This document shows positions 20,099 through 64,000 of a stretch of DNA of 64,000 nucleotides, in pieces (position 1 is the stretch's first letter; each line of letters opens with the position of its first letter). Source of the DNA: Alphaproteobacteria bacterium (GTDB taxonomy: Bacteria; Pseudomonadota; Alphaproteobacteria; RF32; CAG-239); assembly GCA_017480745.1 (NCBI GenBank), contig JAFUSA010000031.1:13792-77791 (forward strand), read 5' to 3'. Both the position numbers and the translations under genes were made by a program. Under the pieces are notes generated by a model, which was not told the DNA's origin, did not search any database, and saw only the letters and a list, made by a program, of their open reading frames with translations.

Positions 20099-20746
20099 TC
20101 AATAGAATTTCAAGAGCAATGCATTTTCGTCACCATCACAAACGGCTGCTGCATTAGCGGCGGTCATCGGACCTTTACCTCCACAAGCAATTCCGTTACC
20201 AGCAGAACATGCTGCAATTTTCTCTTGAAAAGTAGATAAGGTTGTATTTTCTACTTTATTTACCACGTTTGCTTCTATCAAGCCTGAACCGGAAGCCGAA
20301 CCCCAATCCTGAGTTGCCAAATCCATGCAAGCTTCTTCCGGAATGTTAGTAAACGCTACCACAAACGCTTTCGCATCACCACATTTCGTACAAAGAGCGT
20401 TATCCTTACTAGCACGAGCCGCCGCAACCAACTCAATAGCGCCACCAAACGGATTACCGTTCTCTATTATATCGGTGGAGCCATTCAGCAACTCATCCGG
20501 AAATAATTTTGCTTTGGCAATTAAAGAACCTGTTGTTGTTGCTCCTAAAGCTTTATAGTTCTTTTGGCTGCCGAACAGAGTGCGCACATTGGTTACAATC
20601 ATAGAAATTTGTTCAATGGTTTTATTTGTGCGGTATTTCATCATTGCTTTGGAATATCCGGCAATACCACCAACAGACAAAACACCGATGATGGCCAAAA
20701 CGCCTAACATCTCAATCATGGAACGACCGTTCTCATTATTTTTCAT
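20099..20746 (-). CDS. Type IV pilin-like protein (pilin 1, no structured leader; candidate major pilin)
   Basis: Short leader peptide, G/RSMIEMLGVLAIIGVLSVGG with Glu+5, Cys-containing C-terminal domain, GAGGAG SD. Confidence 0.88.
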   Translation of the reverse strand: MKNNENGRSMIEMLGVLAIIGVLSVGGIAGYSKAMMKYRTNKTIEQISMIVTNVRTLFGSQKNYKALGATTTGSLIAKAKLFPDELLNGSTDIIENGNPFGGAIELVAAARASKDNALCTKCGDAKAFVVAFTNIPEEACMDLATQDWGSASGSGLIEANVVNKVENTTLSTFQEKIAACSAGNGIACGGKGPMTAANAAAVCDGDENALLLKFY

Positions 20747-20813: not shown

Positions 20814-20923
20814 TACGCTATTTGTAATAGTTACAAAGTAATACACAATTTTCAACGCATACTATGCACTGTAATTTTGGAGATACTTTATTTGCGGCAA
20901 AAAGTAAAAACTACAAGATTTTG

Positions 20924-22981: not shown

Positions 22982-24460
22982 TTATTCTGCCAAACGAAAC
23001 AAATCAAATGGTAAACCATTAACGGTAATATAGGCGATAAGCAGGCAAAAAACGGCAAAAATTTGCAACATATTTAATATGTTTTGATTCTTTGCTAACG
23101 GAAAAATACGCGGCAATATTTTTAACAACCAGTTAAGAGCATAAATTCCCACGGTAATAAGTATAAGCTGAGCAAAAATTCCCGCCTGAATAATCTCCGT
23201 CTTATATGGAACCGCCAACTTGTATAAAAAGGCAAAAAATAACAAATACACTGCGCAAAATACATAAAATCCGTAATGTTTTAGATTATCAAGATAAGCC
23301 TGCTCTTGATTTTGGCGCACCATATTTTCCGCCGTTATTTTTTCCACTTTCATTCCGCGCACTGTTTGCGGCTCTTGCTGTTGTTTTTTATATTCCTCCA
23401 TCTGCGCTTTGAATTTTTCTTTAACCATACACAGACCGCATCCTTTCGGAGTAAAATAGGCATGGTTATGATCTTTTTTGCACTGTTTACGATTTTTTAC
23501 CAAATATTCTAAAAGTGATTGCCATTCCAGCGCACTCGGTCGCTCATTGCCTTTGGTAAATGCACGCTCAAACAAAACCATGGTGTTTTTATCAAAATAA
23601 TCATGAATACTATACGGGTGCGGAGCCTGATAAGTATCTTGCCACATGCCATAAGCGTAATGATAATCGGCGATGCGTTCTTGTATGGAAAGCATATTCA
23701 CGCTTTTGCGCGGAACACCTGAAAATGGGTGGATTCCCTCATTTAAAAGTTTGAATATAATAACAGCCAAAGCAAACTTATCCTGTTCCTCCCCCATTTC
23801 TTGACAAGTTTGTTCCATACCCTCGGGATATATATATTCTTCGCTCACATATTCTGCCGGATAACGCTCGTTATTTTCGCCTTTAATGGAAAAACCGTCG
23901 CAATCAAATAAAGCCACCAACATCGTACCTTTATAAACAGAAACGTTTGACGGCTTCAAATCAACAATATAGTGTCCGCAAGCGTGCAATGCCGCCACCA
24001 CCGAAGCAATATTATATGCCGCATAAATTCGATTCACATAACGTTCGCTTATTCCCAATTTTTGCCGCACGGCTTTTTGCATTAAATGATCCATGGATAT
24101 GGCATCATTAGTATCAATCAAAGGCATTAAATAACCAACGCAAAAGCCTTGTTTATCCTCCAATAAGGCAGTAGGCCACGCAATCTGAATATATTCTTTT
24201 TCAACAACTTTATCACCTGTTTTATCTTTGTGTTTAATAACCGGAATATTAGGCCGATTATGCAACATGGCTTCAAGTTTTTTGCGGTTTATCTCGCTGT
24301 TTTTACGGTCATGATAAATCTTAGCAACGCTCTTAGGATGGCTGTTATCTAAATATATACGACCGGAAGCTCCGCCTTTGTTAAGCAATTCTCCCAAAAC
24401 TATTTCTTCGTGGTGTCCGTCAGGGTATAACGCCAAATATTTATCTTGTATTTCTGCCAT
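22982..24460 (-). CDS. Ser/Thr protein kinase, YegI-like, with C-terminal TM helices
   Basis: GGASGRIY, VAKIY, DLKPSNV, DCDGF motifs; ATG overlaps the PP2C stop codon. Confidence 0.85.
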   Translation of the reverse strand: MAEIQDKYLALYPDGHHEEIVLGELLNKGGASGRIYLDNSHPKSVAKIYHDRKNSEINRKKLEAMLHNRPNIPVIKHKDKTGDKVVEKEYIQIAWPTALLEDKQGFCVGYLMPLIDTNDAISMDHLMQKAVRQKLGISERYVNRIYAAYNIASVVAALHACGHYIVDLKPSNVSVYKGTMLVALFDCDGFSIKGENNERYPAEYVSEEYIYPEGMEQTCQEMGEEQDKFALAVIIFKLLNEGIHPFSGVPRKSVNMLSIQERIADYHYAYGMWQDTYQAPHPYSIHDYFDKNTMVLFERAFTKGNERPSALEWQSLLEYLVKNRKQCKKDHNHAYFTPKGCGLCMVKEKFKAQMEEYKKQQQEPQTVRGMKVEKITAENMVRQNQEQAYLDNLKHYGFYVFCAVYLLFFAFLYKLAVPYKTEIIQAGIFAQLILITVGIYALNWLLKILPRIFPLAKNQNILNMLQIFAVFCLLIAYITVNGLPFDLFRLAE

Positions 24461-25206
24461 CACAATCTCGCCCACAATATAGTTTTATCATCTGAATTAA
24501 GACGTTGCGCTCGCTTGTCGTTAAGGGTGTTATTCAAAGCCTGTAAAGCATAGGTTTTACGTTGTTCAATTTCCAAATACTCCGCTACCGGAATAAAAAA
24601 TTTATACTGAATATCATAAAAATTATCGGCAAAAACAAAACCGGTTACACCATCTGTCATCAACATTACCCTATCGACATTTTCAAAAGGTGTAAAACGT
24701 AAACAATCTTGCCAATCACTCATCGTATAAAAATAAGTTTCACACGAAAAATTGCCGTTTTCCGGCTCAGAAATAACAAAATTTTTATAATCTCGCTGCT
24801 TAAAAGCAATACCGGCTCCATCTCCGATATGGAAGAATATTCCTTTGTTATTATGATAAAACACTCCGACTAATGTGGCGGAAAAATTAACCAATTCCGC
24901 CGCGCTTTTACTCCTATTATTTCGATGTAAAAGCAACTTGTTGCGAGCAATTTTAATTGATTTTATAACACTGTTGCGAATATCTTTTATGTCTGTGCGA
25001 ATAAGAGTATCACAAAGTGTCTCACAAATAACTTTTGCGCCGATTTTGCCGTATGGTGCAGACCCTGCACCATCTGACACAACGGCAACCAACTTGTTTT
25101 TGGCAATTTTGGAACAGCTAAAATCTTGACATGGCAAATTTTTTATGCGGTGCATTGCACCACAAATACTGGTAGCCAAAACTTTAATTTGTTCCTTGCC
25201 TGCCAT
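24460..25206 (-). CDS. PP2C-family phosphatase, YegK-like
   Basis: PCQD, VSDGAGS, HIGDG, MTDGV and DDKT motifs. Confidence 0.9.
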   Translation of the reverse strand: MAGKEQIKVLATSICGAMHRIKNLPCQDFSCSKIAKNKLVAVVSDGAGSAPYGKIGAKVICETLCDTLIRTDIKDIRNSVIKSIKIARNKLLLHRNNRSKSAAELVNFSATLVGVFYHNNKGIFFHIGDGAGIAFKQRDYKNFVISEPENGNFSCETYFYTMSDWQDCLRFTPFENVDRVMLMTDGVTGFVFADNFYDIQYKFFIPVAEYLEIEQRKTYALQALNNTLNDKRAQRLNSDDKTILWARL

Positions 25207-25209
25207 CTG

Positions 25210-25890
25210 TTAATTCTCGTTCCACTCAGTTATGTCATCAAGATAATTGTTTGCATTTGGTGCGGCTTTTGATATGCAGGAAACACTGCGACTAAGCCAT
25301 AGAAAAAATTCGGTAAATTTTAAGCCGGTCAAACGTTTGGGTGGCAATAGAGAAAATTTTGCTAACTTATCAAGGTTGGCGCCTTGTGTGCCAATAGCAT
25401 GAATCACAACTTTTTTATTTTTCTGCGCATAACGGCATATTTCCGCCGCATCTTCCCAACCATAATCGGTTGGTTCTCCGTCGCTGATTAAAAAAATCCA
25501 CGGTCTTTTAGAGGTTATACCACAACTATCATACAAACATTTTTGCTCTTCTATTTTTTGCAAAGCAGTTTCCATAGCTTTTCCAAGCGGAGTAAGACCG
25601 CCGGCTTCCATTGTCGGCGCCGTAAAATTCATAGCATCAACCCAATCGGTTTCAACACTCACCTCATCTTCGCCTGAAGCTTTAATAATCAGAAGCTGCA
25701 CCCGCGAACTGGCGTCTATATCTTCCTTCAATTCTTTCTCCAACGCTTTAAGTCCGCTGTTGAGTTGTTTTATCGGCTCATCGCGCATAGATCCGGAACA
25801 ATCTAAAACTAAAACGCAAGGAGTGCGCTCGTTGGCGTTTTCGGCAAATTCTACATAAGGTATGCGTTCCATATTATTTTTATCAGCCAT
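25210..25890 (-). CDS. vWA-domain protein, TerY/YegL-like
   Basis: MIDAS DCSGSM, GGLTPLG, RPWIFLISDGEPTD, FFLWLSRS. Confidence 0.9.
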   Translation of the reverse strand: MADKNNMERIPYVEFAENANERTPCVLVLDCSGSMRDEPIKQLNSGLKALEKELKEDIDASSRVQLLIIKASGEDEVSVETDWVDAMNFTAPTMEAGGLTPLGKAMETALQKIEEQKCLYDSCGITSKRPWIFLISDGEPTDYGWEDAAEICRYAQKNKKVVIHAIGTQGANLDKLAKFSLLPPKRLTGLKFTEFFLWLSRSVSCISKAAPNANNYLDDITEWNEN

Positions 25891-28068: not shown

Positions 28069-28241
28069 AAAATAACCGCCCGATAAGGCGGCTGGAAGCT
28101 CTAAACTATCATCTATCCAATAGCGTTGCGTATTTGCCACAGGTTTATTCCACAACCTTCCAGCCATGCTGGAAATATTTTACGTCACAAAGGACGGATA
28201 GATAAGAGGTTTAGAGACCTCAGACGAATTTTACCTCATCT
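28069..28241 (-). ncRNA. Pilin leader RNA, divergent copy D (candidate riboswitch/attenuator)
   Basis: Same helix order as the three + strand copies; pseudoknots CUCUAA/UUAGAG and UAUCUAUCC/GGAUAGAUG; antiterminator GGCUGGAAG/CUUCCAGCC overlaps terminator AGCCGCC/GGCGGUU-AUUUU. Confidence 0.75.
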
Positions 28242-43749: not shown

Positions 43750-43777
43750 TTGACTTTTTAATTTTTTGTGATAGTAT
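43750..43777 (+). promoter_or_regulatory. Promoter of pilin leader A
   Basis: TTGACT (43750-43755), 16-nt spacer ending TGA, TAGTAT (43772-43777). Confidence 0.7.
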
Positions 43778-43784
43778 TCCAGAT

Positions 43785-43979
43785 AGAACTTCGGTTCGAG
43801 GGCTTTGAACAGCTCTTAGGTTTTCGGTGCTTTTGCATCGTTATAAGAATGTAATATATCTCCGATTGGGTCGGGGAGTCTCTAACGGATGTTCAGGAAC
43901 TTTGTTCTAAAGGTTAGGGGAATCACTAAAACCTATGATTGTTCAACTCTCCCGACCGCTGTTTAGTGGTCAATTTTTT
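43785..43979 (+). ncRNA. Pilin leader RNA, copy A (candidate riboswitch/attenuator)
   Basis: Homologous to 59407-59605 and 63450-63647 with compensatory changes in the helices; ends in terminator GACCGCU/AGUGGUC-AAUUUUUU. Confidence 0.85.
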
Positions 43980-44013
43980 ATTGTGTTAATACTTAATTTT
44001 AGGAGATAGAATT

Positions 44014-44640
44014 ATGAAAAACTTAAATGTAAAAAATCAAAACGGGCGCTCAATGATTGAGATGCTGGGTGTTCTTGCTATCATCGGTGTTTTATCGGTT
44101 GGCGGAATCGCGGGATACAGCAAGGCGATGATGAAATATAGAATCAATAAAACCATTGAGCAGATAACGTTAATTGCCGGTAATGTGAGAACATTTTTTG
44201 CTATGCAAAGGGATTATGAAGGACTTGATTCAAGCACAGATGATGGTAGGAAAATAATTCAAAAAGCCAAACTTGTGCCCGATGAAATGTGGAATGAAGC
44301 CGGAAACGGTTTGGTAAATGCGTTTGGAGATATGTTTTATGTAAATGCAACAGGAAAGTCGGCAGAGGATTCTTATGGTAATAGAGCGTTTCAAATTCAA
44401 CTGCATGAAATACCAGAAGAAGCCTGCATTGAGTTATTATCGCATGATTGGCAAGCCAGCGGTATGGTAGCTATATATACAGATACCAGTTCCAAAGGAG
44501 AAGTAATTGCTAAGGTTCCGCTCAGTGTTGAGGCGGCAACCAACTTCTGTGCCGATAATAGTGGCGATGATAAAGACACTCTTTTTATGTTTGATATAGA
44601 CTGGAACAGGTGGTCTGACGGACTTTACATTTATGAATAA
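44014..44640 (+). CDS. Type IV pilin-like protein (pilin 3)
   Basis: G/RSMIEMLGVLAIIGVLSVGG, KAKLVPDEM, IPEEACIELLSHDW; AGGAG SD. Confidence 0.88.
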   Translation: MKNLNVKNQNGRSMIEMLGVLAIIGVLSVGGIAGYSKAMMKYRINKTIEQITLIAGNVRTFFAMQRDYEGLDSSTDDGRKIIQKAKLVPDEMWNEAGNGLVNAFGDMFYVNATGKSAEDSYGNRAFQIQLHEIPEEACIELLSHDWQASGMVAIYTDTSSKGEVIAKVPLSVEAATNFCADNSGDDKDTLFMFDIDWNRWSDGLYIYE

Positions 44641-59278: not shown

Positions 59279-59372
59279 TATTGTTCTCCTTTTAATTGAC
59301 CACACGATAATAGTAATATATTTTTTATTATACAACCTATACTTTTGTTTTAGACTTTTCTGCAAAAAATAT

Positions 59373-59400
59373 TTGACTTTTACTTTTTTTATGGTATAGT
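59373..59400 (+). promoter_or_regulatory. Promoter of pilin leader B
   Basis: TTGACT (59373-59378), 16-nt spacer ending TGG, TATAGT (59395-59400). Confidence 0.72.
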
Positions 59401-59406
59401 GAAGTC

Positions 59407-59605
59407 AGAACTTCGGTTCGGAGCTCTCAAAAGCTCTTATTAAGGTTGGCATCAAAAGATGTCATTAGTAAATGTGATAATATCTCCGATTTGGGTTGGG
59501 GAGTCTGTAACGGATGTTCAGAGCATTTGCTTAAAGGTTATGGAAATCATTTGCCTTAATATGATTTTTGAGCTCTCCCGACCGCCATTTAGCGGTCAAT
59601 TTTTT
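59407..59605 (+). ncRNA. Pilin leader RNA, copy B (candidate riboswitch/attenuator)
   Basis: Starts AGAAC-UUCG-GUUC; pseudoknots CUCAAA/UUUGAG and UAUUAAGGU/GCCUUAAUA; terminator GACCGC/GCGGUC-AAUUUUUU. Confidence 0.85.
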
Positions 59606-59639
59606 AATGTGTTAACCTCTGAATTTAGGAGATAAAATT

Positions 59640-60281
59640 ATGAAAAAATGTAATTTAAAAAATAATGATTATCTCTCCCCTTGCGGGAGAGAGAGCCAGT
59701 CCGGACGTTCAATGATTGAGATGTTGGGCGTTTTAGCTATCATTGGCGTGCTTTCTGTTGGCGGAATCGCAGGATACAGCAAAGCAATGATGAAGTATCG
59801 TATTAACAAAACCATTGAGCAGATAACCCTCATTGCCGGTAACATAAGAACATTTTTTGCTCCACAAGGAAATTATGCCGGTCTGGATAATGAAAAAGTA
59901 ATCCGAAAGGCCAAACTTATACCTGAAGAAATGATAGAGTATTATGTTGAAGGACCAGGTATTTCAATTGACTATGAAGGCACAATAAAATCCATAATAA
60001 ATCCGTTTGATGGCGCATTTATTATTCATACAGAAGAAGATTATAGAGCGTTTGGTTTTTCGTTAACAAACATACCGGAAGAAGCCTGTATAGAACTTCT
60101 AAGCAATGATTGGACTGAATTGAATGTAACGCATTTTTGCCACTCAGGTCCTCCTGTATGTATTACGCCGAAAGCAGATTTTGATAAAATACTGACCTTG
60201 TGTGAAAAAGCAAAAGATAGCTATTTGTTTCTTTTCTTTGAATTAAAAAATGAATTACCCGGCGATGGAAGCTGGTTATGA
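59640..60281 (+). CDS. Type IV pilin-like protein (pilin 4)
   Basis: G/RSMIEMLGVLAIIGVLSVGG, KAKLIPEEM, IPEEACIELLSNDW. Confidence 0.88.
   Translation: MKKCNLKNNDYLSPCGRESQSGRSMIEMLGVLAIIGVLSVGGIAGYSKAMMKYRINKTIEQITLIAGNIRTFFAPQGNYAGLDNEKVIRKAKLIPEEMIEYYVEGPGISIDYEGTIKSIINPFDGAFIIHTEEDYRAFGFSLTNIPEEACIELLSNDWTELNVTHFCHSGPPVCITPKADFDKILTLCEKAKDSYLFLFFELKNELPGDGSWL
59672..59692. repeat. REP-like GC-rich palindrome inside the prepilin leader peptide
   Basis: TCTCTCCC-CTTGC-GGGAGAGA; a degenerate copy in the opposite gene-relative orientation lies at 27981-28003. Confidence 0.65.
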
Positions 60282-63331: not shown

Positions 63332-63415
63332 TGTTCCTCTCCGTTTTTTGACGTTTTAACCACATTATAACATAAATGAGCAAAATGCAACAGAAAAATA
63401 TTTTACATTTTAGGT

Positions 63416-63443
63416 TTGACTTTTGAATTTTTTGTGATATAGT
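63416..63443 (+). promoter_or_regulatory. Promoter of pilin leader C
   Basis: TTGACT (63416-63421), 16-nt spacer ending TGA, TATAGT (63438-63443). Confidence 0.72.
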
Positions 63444-63449
63444 CGATGG

Positions 63450-63647
63450 AGAACTTCGGTTCGGGGCCTTAGAAAGCTCTTACTACATTCGGTGTTCGAC
63501 ACCGTAACTATATATGATTAAATATCTCCGACTTGGGTTGGGGAGTCGTTAGTGGATGTTCAGGGGCTTTGCCCTAAAGATTAGCGAGATCATTTAATGT
63601 AGTATGATTTTCTAACTCCCCTGCCGCCGTTTGGCGGTCAATTTTTT
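63450..63647 (+). ncRNA. Pilin leader RNA, copy C (candidate riboswitch/attenuator)
   Basis: Starts AGAAC-UUCG-GUUC; pseudoknots UUAGAA/UUCUAA and UACUACAUU/AAUGUAGUA; terminator GCCGCC/GGCGGU-CAAUUUUUU. Confidence 0.85.
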
Positions 63648-63682
63648 AGTGTAAAATAACCTATTAACAGAGGAGATAAATT

Positions 63683-64000
63683 ATGAAAAATTTAAATAAT
63701 ATAAATAATGAATCCGGTCGCAGTATGATTGAAATGTTGGGCGTGTTGGCAATTATCGGTGTTTTGAGCGTTGGCGGAATCGCCGGATATTCCAAAGCCA
63801 TGCAAAAATATCGCATTAATAAAGCCATAGAACAAATAACTCTTATTGCCGGAAATATACGTGCGTTTTTCGGACCGCAGAAGAATTATGTCGGGGTGAG
63901 ATGTGTTTGCGATAACGGTGGTTATACTGGTGAAACTACTAACGATGGCTGTCCGATAATTAAAAAAGCCAAGATATTACCGGATGAAATGATTACTCTC
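63683..64000 (+). CDS. Type IV pilin-like protein (pilin 5, truncated by the window end)
   Basis: Manual translation MKNLNNINNESG/RSMIEMLGVLAIIGVLSVGGIAGYSKAMQKYRINK...KAKILPDEM; GAGGAG SD. Confidence 0.88.
   Translation, partial: MKNLNNINNESGRSMIEMLGVLAIIGVLSVGGIAGYSKAMQKYRINKAIEQITLIAGNIRAFFGPQKNYVGVRCVCDNGGYTGETTNDGCPIIKKAKILPDEMITL

Follow-up and report, generated by a model that had tools for sequence, protein, structure and literature searches.

What decides whether a gene is expressed when a terminator hairpin stands between its promoter and its reading frame? This question is raised by a pilin-like gene in a stretch of 64,000 nucleotides (nt) of contig JAFUSA010000031.1 (assembly GCA_017480745.1), from an Alphaproteobacteria bacterium of the RF32 lineage; this whole stretch is referred to below as the window. 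Upstream of the gene lies a structured leader of ~190 nt, counted from the start site to the U tract, and its hairpin and U tract are placed between promoter and open reading frame (ORF), as in an intrinsic-terminator attenuator. A preliminary description of the window had proposed that an anti-antiterminator, an antiterminator and a terminator compete in this leader for common strands. We find covariation in agreement with this proposal both within the genome and across species, and hold with some confidence that the leader is a conditional terminator/antiterminator switch. The predicted structure, comprising the three competing elements and a set of pseudoknots, is supported unusually well by comparative data.

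A family of leaders upstream of pilin genes

The leader is one of many. BLAST and nhmmer searches of the genome (1,598,228 bases in 34 contigs) identified 191 leader loci, 174 full-length and 17 partial. The full-length copies divide into a long class of 84, to which copies A (the locus in question), B and C of the window belong, and a short class of 90, represented in the window by copy D. By our own arithmetic (174 x ~250 nt) the leader copies make up ~2.7% of the 1.6-Mb genome. A total of 160 of the 174 full-length copies precede ORFs with a pilin-type N-terminus on the same strand, ~35 nt before the ribosome-binding site, and the remainder lie before lipoprotein, glycosyltransferase or other genes, or where no ORF was called. 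These pilin-like ORFs encode ~200-290 amino acids (aa), and by our estimate about one gene in 10 of the genome may be a pilin paralogue. The pilin genes are dispersed among housekeeping genes and are not within pilus-machinery operons. The ORF of copy A matches the Pfam families PilS N-terminal (5.8e-12), Bundlin (1.4e-11) and N_methyl (0.0025).

One G-rich strand with two partners

The strands on which the proposed switch depends in copy A are CUCCGA (43860-65), the G-rich strand GGUCGGGGAGU (43869-79) and ACUCUCCCGACC (43946-57), with AAUUUUUU after the terminator stem, and each was found where the preliminary description had placed it. Its central claim, that the G-rich strand can pair either locally, forming the anti-antiterminator hairpin, or at long range, forming the antiterminator, is borne out by covariation with both partners in this genome and in other species. 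The long-range partner overlaps the 5′ arm of the terminator, as had been noted, by four nucleotides (GACC) that are common to both helices.

In the short class, with 90 distinct copies, the local hairpin is paired in 98.2% of alignment cells, and 53 cells have changed on both sides against 2.7 in shuffled alignments; for the antiterminator these values are 99.8% and 26 against 4.0. None of 300 shuffles reached the observed value for either helix, although paralogues and relatives are not independent and shuffle counts of this kind, here and below, are therefore not probabilities. The variation concerns the same bases of the G-rich strand in both helices. At column 113 the pairs with the local partner (column 104) are GC in 43 copies, GU in 27 and AU in 18, and those with the antiterminator partner (column 181) are CG in 43, UA in 25 and UG in 22. 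At column 112 the local partner (column 105) gives AU in 34, GC in 34 and GU in 20, and the antiterminator partner (column 182) UG in 40, CG in 35 and UA in 15. Wherever column 113 is C, G is present at both partners (43/43 copies).

The long class of this genome has nearly invariant switching strands (local hairpin 96.7% paired, antiterminator 97.9%), as expected if one strand must satisfy two partners. The short class and other species supply most of the support for the long-class switching strands. For 116 distinct long-class matches in other genomes we compiled a duplex-based table, which optimises pairing and could overcount, and in which position 5 of the G-rich strand is G or U and its partner C or A (antiterminator GC 103, UA 9; local hairpin GC 97, UA 11). 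Position 4 of the local hairpin in these matches is CG in 93, UA in 11 and UG in 9; position 9 of the antiterminator changes from A-U to U-A in three matches. A change from G-C to A-U is seen at G-strand position 2 in three matches. Mean duplex energies over the 116 matches are -19.0 kcal/mol for the antiterminator, -14.0 for the local hairpin and -6.8 for a control region. Among 28 distinct short-class matches from other species, position 4 is UA in 14 and CG in 13 for the antiterminator, and CG in 13 and UA in 10 for the local hairpin. Compensation can extend to three partners: at one locus (L138) the G-rich strand has changed from GGUC to GAAU, the shared strand from GACC to GUUC, and the 3′ arm of the terminator is altered to match.

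An independent count was made on an alignment (A5) from a model that deliberately left the switching helices unpaired. The antiterminator is paired in 90.3% of cells in this alignment, compared with at most 75.1% when the strands are slid, and has a covariation score of 0.149 versus 0.130 (0/500 shuffles). The local hairpin and terminator together have 59 cells changed on both sides versus 34 (0/500 shuffles). A shift of the bulged nucleotide in this alignment lowers these values, which lie below the duplex-based ones. Covariation of the same G-strand bases with both partners is direct comparative evidence for two mutually exclusive predicted folds.

Two details of the preliminary description were not supported. 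The outermost antiterminator pair that it had drawn, U43879-A43946, corresponds to alignment columns 130-198 and is canonical in only 25 of 80 copies; covariation places U43879 in helix P5 and A43946 in the pseudoknot PK2. A third pairing, AUAUCU with GGAUGU (UAUUUC with GGAAUA in copy D), had been suggested as a means to destabilise the local hairpin, and it shows no changes on both sides and does not rise above shuffles; at one of its pairs, just 30 of the 90 short-class copies have a canonical combination. The three-way arrangement itself had also been claimed for copies B, C and D, with different sequence in D, and was seen in all three.

The terminator and the balance between folds

Terminators were counted where a stem of at least five pairs was followed by at least five T in the next 9 nt. 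By this count a hairpin and T-run are present in 164 of the 174 full-length copies (88/90 short, 76/84 long). The long-class stem is paired in 96.6% of cells, with 21 changed on both sides versus 5.9 in shuffles, and between species the stems vary with compensation (CCGCC/GGCGG, CCACC/GGUGG, CCUCC/GGAGG). The terminator of copy A, with 7 pairs and a loop of 4, was also recovered by a consensus scan, which returned one site against 0.3 expected.

Unconstrained folding of positions 43785-43985 gave -62.3 kcal/mol (z = -4.05; 0/200 shuffles as stable), and this fold contains the local hairpin (43859-66/43870-77) together with the terminator (43954-60/43965-71). We also folded the 3′ domain under constraint with nearest-neighbour energies, in which pseudoknots are not counted. 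The antiterminator state has a mean of -30.7 +/- 4.0 kcal/mol in the long class and -30.3 +/- 2.6 in the short class, compared with -32.1 +/- 4.9 and -32.7 +/- 3.2, respectively, for local hairpin plus terminator. The bias to the latter is 1.4 +/- 4.0 kcal/mol (long) and 2.4 +/- 2.6 (short), so that in these models the two states are balanced with a slight lean to the terminating one. Based on this small bias, and on the order of synthesis in which the local hairpin comes first, we lean slightly towards a default state that is OFF.

Pseudoknots and a conserved internal loop

A mutual-information scan of all column pairs, in MAFFT alignments made without reference to a structure, recovers helices P3, P5 and P5a and two pseudoknots, PK1 and PK2. 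PK1 joins the linker after P2 to the loop of P6 (columns 67-74 with 179-186) and is paired in 97.0% of long-class cells versus 51.8% in shuffles, with 279 cells changed on both sides; in the short class these proportions are 93.9% versus 53.8%. PK2 joins the loop of P2 to the strand that immediately precedes the antiterminator 3′ strand. Its columns (54-59/193-198) include each of the four Watson-Crick pair types and are canonical in 96-100% of copies, and PK2 is paired in 84.1% of cells versus 57.8% shuffled in the long class and 89.2% versus 56.2% in the short class. Recovery of PK2 by the scan also agrees with the earlier observation that its 3′ strand directly adjoins the antiterminator 3′ strand. 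The PK2 strand pairs of copies A, B, C and D are each different and each internally matching.

A third pseudoknot, PK3, is found in the short class, where the P1 loop GAUGAGG is complementary to CCUCAUC, which spans the remainder of the terminator 5′ arm together with the loop (pair 40-189: GC 36, AU 16, GU 14; pair 44-185: UG 77, UA 8, CG 5). PK3 covers the remaining terminator arm, so that in the putative read-through fold 23 consecutive nucleotides (columns 170-192) would pair with three upstream partners; it is the only pseudoknot that directly overlaps the terminator.

P5 is paired in 98.6% of cells versus 71.8% in shuffles, and both sides have changed in 187 of its cells. Across three species (35 sequences) there is no variation in its loop bases ATGT.CA and AAA, and the internal loop is kept in 41 and 84 matches from other genomes; its sequence differs between long and short class. 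In the predicted structure the antiterminator closes a compact domain containing P5 and P6, and PK1 and PK2 tie this domain to the 5′ part of the leader. A conserved and covarying structure of this kind, with P5, P6, PK1, PK2 and invariant internal-loop bases, fits an aptamer-like core. Two further covarying pairs were observed: a lone long-range Watson-Crick pair between columns 53 and 171 (CG 52, UA 23; ~43803/43921 in copy A), and a non-canonical pair between columns 138 and 162 (G-G 71, A-A 9; ~43887/43912 in copy A) at the base of the P5 internal loop. Their covariation suggests that they are tertiary contacts.

The PK1 sequences are nearly private to each copy: the 80 long-class copies have 79 different 8-mers and the 90 short-class copies have 74, and full complementarity between non-cognate PK1 strands is seen in only 0.3-0.65% of pairs. 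One possible reason is selection that keeps paralogous leaders from pairing with one another.

Features of the window

Coordinates of the leader elements are collected in Table 1. The -35 box and spacer of the promoter are identical in copies A-D and are kept in the consensus sequences of both classes.

Table 1. Leader, terminator and gene features in the window, in window positions
Feature	Position	Strand	Details
Promoter of copy A, sigma-70 type	43750..43777	+	-35 TTGACT 43750-55, 16-nt spacer, -10 TAGTAT 43772-77; near-consensus by consensus scan
P1 hairpin	43786..43797	+	GAAC-UUCG-GUUC; in computed fold; conserved in long-class consensus
P2 hairpin	43800..43815	+	loop 43805-11 is the PK2 5′ strand
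PK1 5′ strand	43818..43824	+	AGGUUUU; partner is the P6 loop 43928-34
P3 hairpin	43825..43840	+	covarying pairs 75-91, 78-88, 79-87, 80-86
Local hairpin (putative anti-antiterminator)	43859..43877	+	UCUCCGAU (43859-66) with GUCGGGGA (43870-77); in minimum-energy fold
G-rich switching strand (putative antiterminator 5′ strand)	43869..43878	+	GGUCGGGGAG; same nucleotides covary with two different partners
P5	43879..43920	+	43879-86 with 43913-20; conserved asymmetric internal loop (GGAUGUUCA / UAAAG); P5a hairpin 43896-43908
P6 hairpin	43921..43940	+	loop 43928-34, AAAACCU, is the PK1 3′ strand
PK2 3′ strand	43940..43946	+	UGUUCAA; directly adjoins antiterminator 3′ strand
Putative antiterminator 3′ strand	43947..43957	+	CUCUCCCGACC; 10 pairs, one bulged U; last 4 nt GACC 43954-57 are part of terminator 5′ arm
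Predicted intrinsic terminator	43954..43979	+	GACCGCU 43954-60, loop GUUU, AGUGGUC 43965-71, AA, U6 43974-79
Shine-Dalgarno and pilin-like ORF	44001..44640	+	AGGAGA 44001-06; ORF 44014-44640, 208 aa
Copy B putative switch	59483..59605	+	local hairpin 59483-90/59495-502; antiterminator 59494-503/59573-83; terminator 59580-97; U tract 59600-05
Copy C putative switch	63525..63647	+	local hairpin 63525-32/63537-44; antiterminator 63536-45/63616-25 (one U-U mismatch); terminator 63623-38; U tract 63642-47
Copy D putative switch (short class)	28069..28240	-	local hairpin 28174-68/28164-58; antiterminator 28165-57/28098-90; terminator 28093-87/28080-74; AUUUU 28073-69
Copy D PK3		-	P1 loop GAUGAGG 28240-34 with CCUUAUC 28088-82
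Promoter-plus-leader cassettes	43750-44013, 59372-59640, 63415-63683	+	
Promoter-plus-leader cassette	28280-28035	-	

A fifth pilin-like gene (20099-20746, minus strand; PilS 3.4e-10) has a short and unrelated 5′ region, in which no leader is present up to position 20900, and it may be a constitutively expressed pilin. Between two pilin genes, on the minus strand at 22982-25890, the window also encodes a Ser/Thr protein kinase (Pkinase 2e-10), a PP2C phosphatase (7e-36) and a protein with a von Willebrand factor A (VWA) domain.

Distribution and downstream genes

DNA searches with the leader (BLAST) found it in only four of 24 genomes of the genus, and covariance models were therefore needed to follow it further. 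A model of the long-class 3′ domain (R1) matches 45 of 50 genomes of the genus and 128 of 141 genomes of gut Alphaproteobacteria sampled from the order (127/139 in the same family, 0/1 in a second family), spread over 18 of the 20 genera sampled, 19 of which belong to the family of this organism. The short-class model (R2) matches 49 of the 50 genus genomes, with up to 64 scored copies per genome. Since no more than 23-72 candidates were scored in each genome, copy numbers are minimum values.

When 185,579 species genomes were scanned for an exact pattern, at least 114 stretches matched, and R1 matches 78 of 80 pattern-scan loci among the matches listed. Nearly all of the records listed are gut bins labelled "Alphaproteobacteria bacterium", from human, ruminant, horse, rabbit and chicken, and examples with other names include Azospirillum sp. 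51_20, Acetobacter sp. CAG:977 and Candidatus Scatocola. Hits in a Gammaproteobacteria bin (L110) and in an Acidobacteriaceae genome (L122) have no model match and were discarded as chance pattern matches. Four contigs with leaders scoring 81-93 bits (L096, L112, L132 and L133) lie in bins labelled Bacteroidaceae, Holdemanella biformis and [Ruminococcus] gnavus, and are probably mis-binned alphaproteobacterial contigs.

Outside this genome, 102 of the 116 distinct matches have a same-strand ORF of at least 60 codons that starts within ~220 nt downstream. Pfam analysis of 85 downstream ORFs from other genomes gave bacterial surface protein A (BspA)-type leucine-rich repeats (LRR; 14), autotransporters (9), SNase (5), outer membrane protein (OMP) barrel, Opacity and surface antigen families (4 each), sugar-binding glycosyltransferases and capsule synthesis proteins (3 each), glycosyltransferase family 2 (GT2; 2), PilS (2), one DNA methylase and one GmrSD; ~12 more were judged by eye to have pilin N-termini. 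The proteins encoded are surface or secreted proteins of many families, and the putative regulon is therefore the cell surface.

How the switch may work

We consider that this segment of the leader is probably the expression platform of a cis-acting transcription-attenuation leader, an ON switch dependent on an effector. As the leader is transcribed, the local hairpin would form first and hold the G-rich strand; the terminator would then form and RNA polymerase would release a leader RNA of ~190 nt, leaving the gene OFF. For the ON state, the downstream strand would have to displace the anti-antiterminator within the ~15-25 nt before the U tract is made. Displacement would be favoured by a stabilized pseudoknotted fold, in which the antiterminator stacks on PK2, and also on PK3 in the short class. 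The proposed effector would stabilize this fold by recognizing the conserved P5 internal loop and the junction, and may be either an RNA-binding protein or a small molecule; if we had to name one candidate, it would be a second messenger. That an effector decides, and not folding kinetics alone, we hold to be somewhat more likely than not.

Several observations weigh against this interpretation. The switching strands covary only weakly in this genome's long class (for each helix, both sides have changed in 4 cells), and to the possible overcounting in the duplex-based table and the relatedness of the sequences must be added the antiterminator column counts on alignment A5, which are barely above shuffles (90.3% versus 88.9% paired; 8 cells changed on both sides versus 3.6, with 11/500 shuffles as high). 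The small excess in these counts reflects the conserved strands and the bulged nucleotide of the antiterminator 3′ strand, which is shifted in the model alignment. Individual sequences also depart from the scheme: there is a U-U mismatch in the antiterminator of copy C and of two other loci (L033 and L034), and a few relatives (L043, L204 and L036) have no recognizable anti-antiterminator strand. The two A between stem and U tract in the long class are not ideal for an intrinsic terminator. PK1 and PK2 overlap neither competing helix nor the terminator, so that we infer their coupling to read-through. Finally, because the P5 loop differs between the classes, they have no conserved pocket in common that one ligand could occupy; each class may respond to an input of its own, or the sensor may be located elsewhere.

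This last point bears on an arrangement with no effector, which we judge unlikely. The leader would then be a kinetic or thermodynamic attenuator with a fixed read-through fraction, a rheostat that holds ~170 strong promoters low, or it would sense polymerase speed, nucleoside triphosphate (NTP) levels, Mg2+ or temperature. Such a device is consistent with two states nearly equal in energy, with a near-consensus promoter on all copies, with regulated genes that have no common metabolite and with the lack of a conserved sensor element common to both classes. However, a passive spacer does not need an invariant P5 internal loop, and three pseudoknots under extensive compensation would be costly for a fixed attenuator. 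Random choice by each transcript would, on its own, give no heritable ON and OFF cells.

Tandem arrays in two relatives raise the question of whether the terminated leader could itself be the main product. One relative (G057; L051, contig C9) carries four complete promoter-leader-terminator units with a 327-nt period followed by one lipoprotein gene, and the ORFs listed include none of at least 50 codons between these units; another (G056; L056, contig C14) has three matches ~320-327 nt apart. The compact, pseudoknot-rich fold would probably be stable, and a small RNA of ~190 nt could act in trans, for example by protein titration, with read-through secondary. We regard this as quite improbable: the arrays also end in a lipoprotein gene, 160 of the 174 copies in this genome stand directly upstream of a same-strand pilin ORF, the same-strand downstream ORFs of 102 of 116 matches elsewhere point the same way, and a conserved antiterminator that overlaps the terminator would have no purpose in a free-standing RNA gene.

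It is no less improbable that the local hairpin is only a transient folding guide, in which case the mature leader would always contain antiterminator and pseudoknots, the gene would be constitutive and the terminator would be a backstop for misfolded transcripts. The antiterminator duplex is indeed stronger than the local one (-19.0 versus -14.0 kcal/mol), but once loops are counted the averages slightly favour the local hairpin plus terminator. The antiterminator can have PK2 and PK3 stacked on it, and a few relatives manage without the local strand; against this, 164 of 174 copies retain terminator stem and T-run, the stem shows covariation, and the local hairpin is compensated in two classes and many species, beyond the usual constraint on a transient guide.

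Translational control, in which the G-rich strand mimics the Shine-Dalgarno sequence and the freed C-rich strands pair with the true ribosome-binding site, is very improbable: class-specific resemblances exist (GGGGAG and AGGAGA for G-rich strand and Shine-Dalgarno sequence in the long class, GGAAGG and AGGAAG in the short class; UAUCUCC at 43856-62 of copy A is perfectly complementary, over 7 nt, to GGAGAUA at the ribosome-binding site, and short-class AACUUCC to GGAAGUU in the consensus sequences), but other species keep the G-rich strand GGUCGGGGAG with different ribosome-binding sites (e.g. AAAGGAAAA in G057), no covariation between leader and ribosome-binding site stands out in the mutual-information scan, and the class match is explicable by common descent of the whole cassette. 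Shine-Dalgarno mimicry was accordingly set aside as not kept across species.

Candidate effectors

If the preferred reading of an effector-dependent switch is followed, a few observations offer leads, and no more than leads, to possible inputs. The genome encodes one GGDEF protein (G000:C7:111344-111814, minus strand; a 576-aa frame with a membrane N-terminus), which has an intact GGEEF motif and an RxxD site (RKDD), and 48 of 50 genus genomes carry the gene. Surface or secreted proteins of many families are also typical of cyclic di-GMP (c-di-GMP) regulons; the putative regulon and the conserved GGDEF gene are compatible with c-di-GMP as a signal, and not specific to it. No match was found in the genome to the c-di-GMP-I and c-di-GMP-II riboswitch models (RF01051, RF01786), although the blank for c-di-GMP-I is weak because this model was silent in the control genomes too. 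There is also no PilZ match and no EAL match in the genome; HD-GYP was not searched for.

Rfam gave nothing at gathering score in the leaders. The copy A leader has no match at E-values up to 10, and the copy D leader has chance-level matches only (E >= 0.7). A full-text literature search, which did not extend to the supplements of papers, returned no description of the leader or of a pilin expansion in these bacteria. The leader is thus outside every curated Rfam family and looks, as judged from sequence comparison, like an attenuation or riboswitch-like leader that has been unusually multiplied.

Attenuation by a leader peptide was considered and rejected. A 6-codon ORF (MFRAFA or similar) runs from an invariant AUG in the P5 loop to an invariant UAA in 68 of 80 long-class copies; in copy A (ORF region 43889-43909) this UAA is not in frame. 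In the 116 matches from other genomes the ORF is anywhere from 4 to 60 codons long, so that other species do not keep the frame, and leader-peptide attenuation was rejected for this reason. A reading of the P5 internal loop as a tetraloop-receptor or T-loop was also dropped, and there is no GNRA loop in the leader.

A more far-reaching reading, which we find decidedly doubtful, is genome-wide RNA control of the surface repertoire. One limiting effector would read the G-rich strand, the junction and the P5 loop, the private PK1 and PK2 sequences would insulate ~170 leaders from one another, and abundant terminated leaders would also compete for the effector. Competition among leaders would leave few pilins expressed, giving antigenic variation without DNA rearrangement. 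Candidates for the shared effector would be c-di-GMP from the lone conserved cyclase, for which no PilZ receptor was found, or a dedicated antiterminator protein.

Comparison with known leaders and surface-gene sets

SAM-I (S-box) riboswitch platforms and trp-type attenuators are the classical leaders with terminator, antiterminator and anti-antiterminator. Like these, the leader has three overlapping helices before the ORF, a terminator 5′ arm shared with the antiterminator and another antiterminator strand that a partner upstream can hold. It differs in having no Rfam match and no conserved leader peptide, in an antiterminator that lies within a double or triple pseudoknotted fold, and in its ~170 copies per 1.6-Mb genome. 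ZTP, SAM-II and preQ1-II riboswitches are built on long-range pseudoknots. In these riboswitches, and as we propose for this leader, a pseudoknot from a 5′ element to a strand beside the expression platform helps to decide terminator formation, whereas the leader has two or three separate pseudoknots with sequences that are nearly private to each copy.

The genes downstream invite comparison with Neisseria, in which pilins, Opa proteins, lipooligosaccharide (LOS) glycosyltransferases and autotransporters form phase-variable sets that switch through DNA repeats or inversions. The gene set behind the leader is similar to these contingency sets, with pilins, Opacity/OMP barrels, autotransporters, BspA-type LRR proteins, glycosyltransferases and a DNA methylase. 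Here, in contrast, the shared element is a putative RNA switch, and no DNA-level switching was seen, although it was not looked for in depth.

RNA-level control of surface genes has a precedent in Clostridioides difficile, in which c-di-GMP-II riboswitches precede a type IV pilin operon and adhesin genes (CD3513-03, CD2831, CD3246 and cmrRST; PMC11477304). The likeness is a structured leader before pilin and surface genes, an RNA-level control of a surface regulon, which is proposed here, and the presence of a diguanylate cyclase in the genome. Our leader differs in architecture, is twice as long, has no model match and has classes without a common candidate pocket. T-box leaders (PMC7583486) also form a multi-copy family in one genome, with exclusive terminator and antiterminator and with long-range RNA contacts that decide between them. 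The present leader differs from these in that it has no Rfam match, precedes surface-protein and not amino-acid genes, has neither a specifier loop nor a bulge for the tRNA end in its antiterminator, and makes contacts that are predicted to be intramolecular.

Significance

Here we have described a leader whose two alternative folds and three pseudoknots are supported, down to single base pairs, by hundreds of natural variants. Behind it stand genes of the kinds (pilins, adhesins and autotransporters, OMPs, glycosyltransferases) that usually decide the encounters of bacteria with host and phages. If an effector exists, the leader would be an orphan riboswitch or antiterminator class that comes with ready-made natural compensatory mutants; if there is none, it would be a model for the setting of gene output by balanced co-transcriptional folding. 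Either way, regulation of a very large family of pilin genes becomes directly testable.

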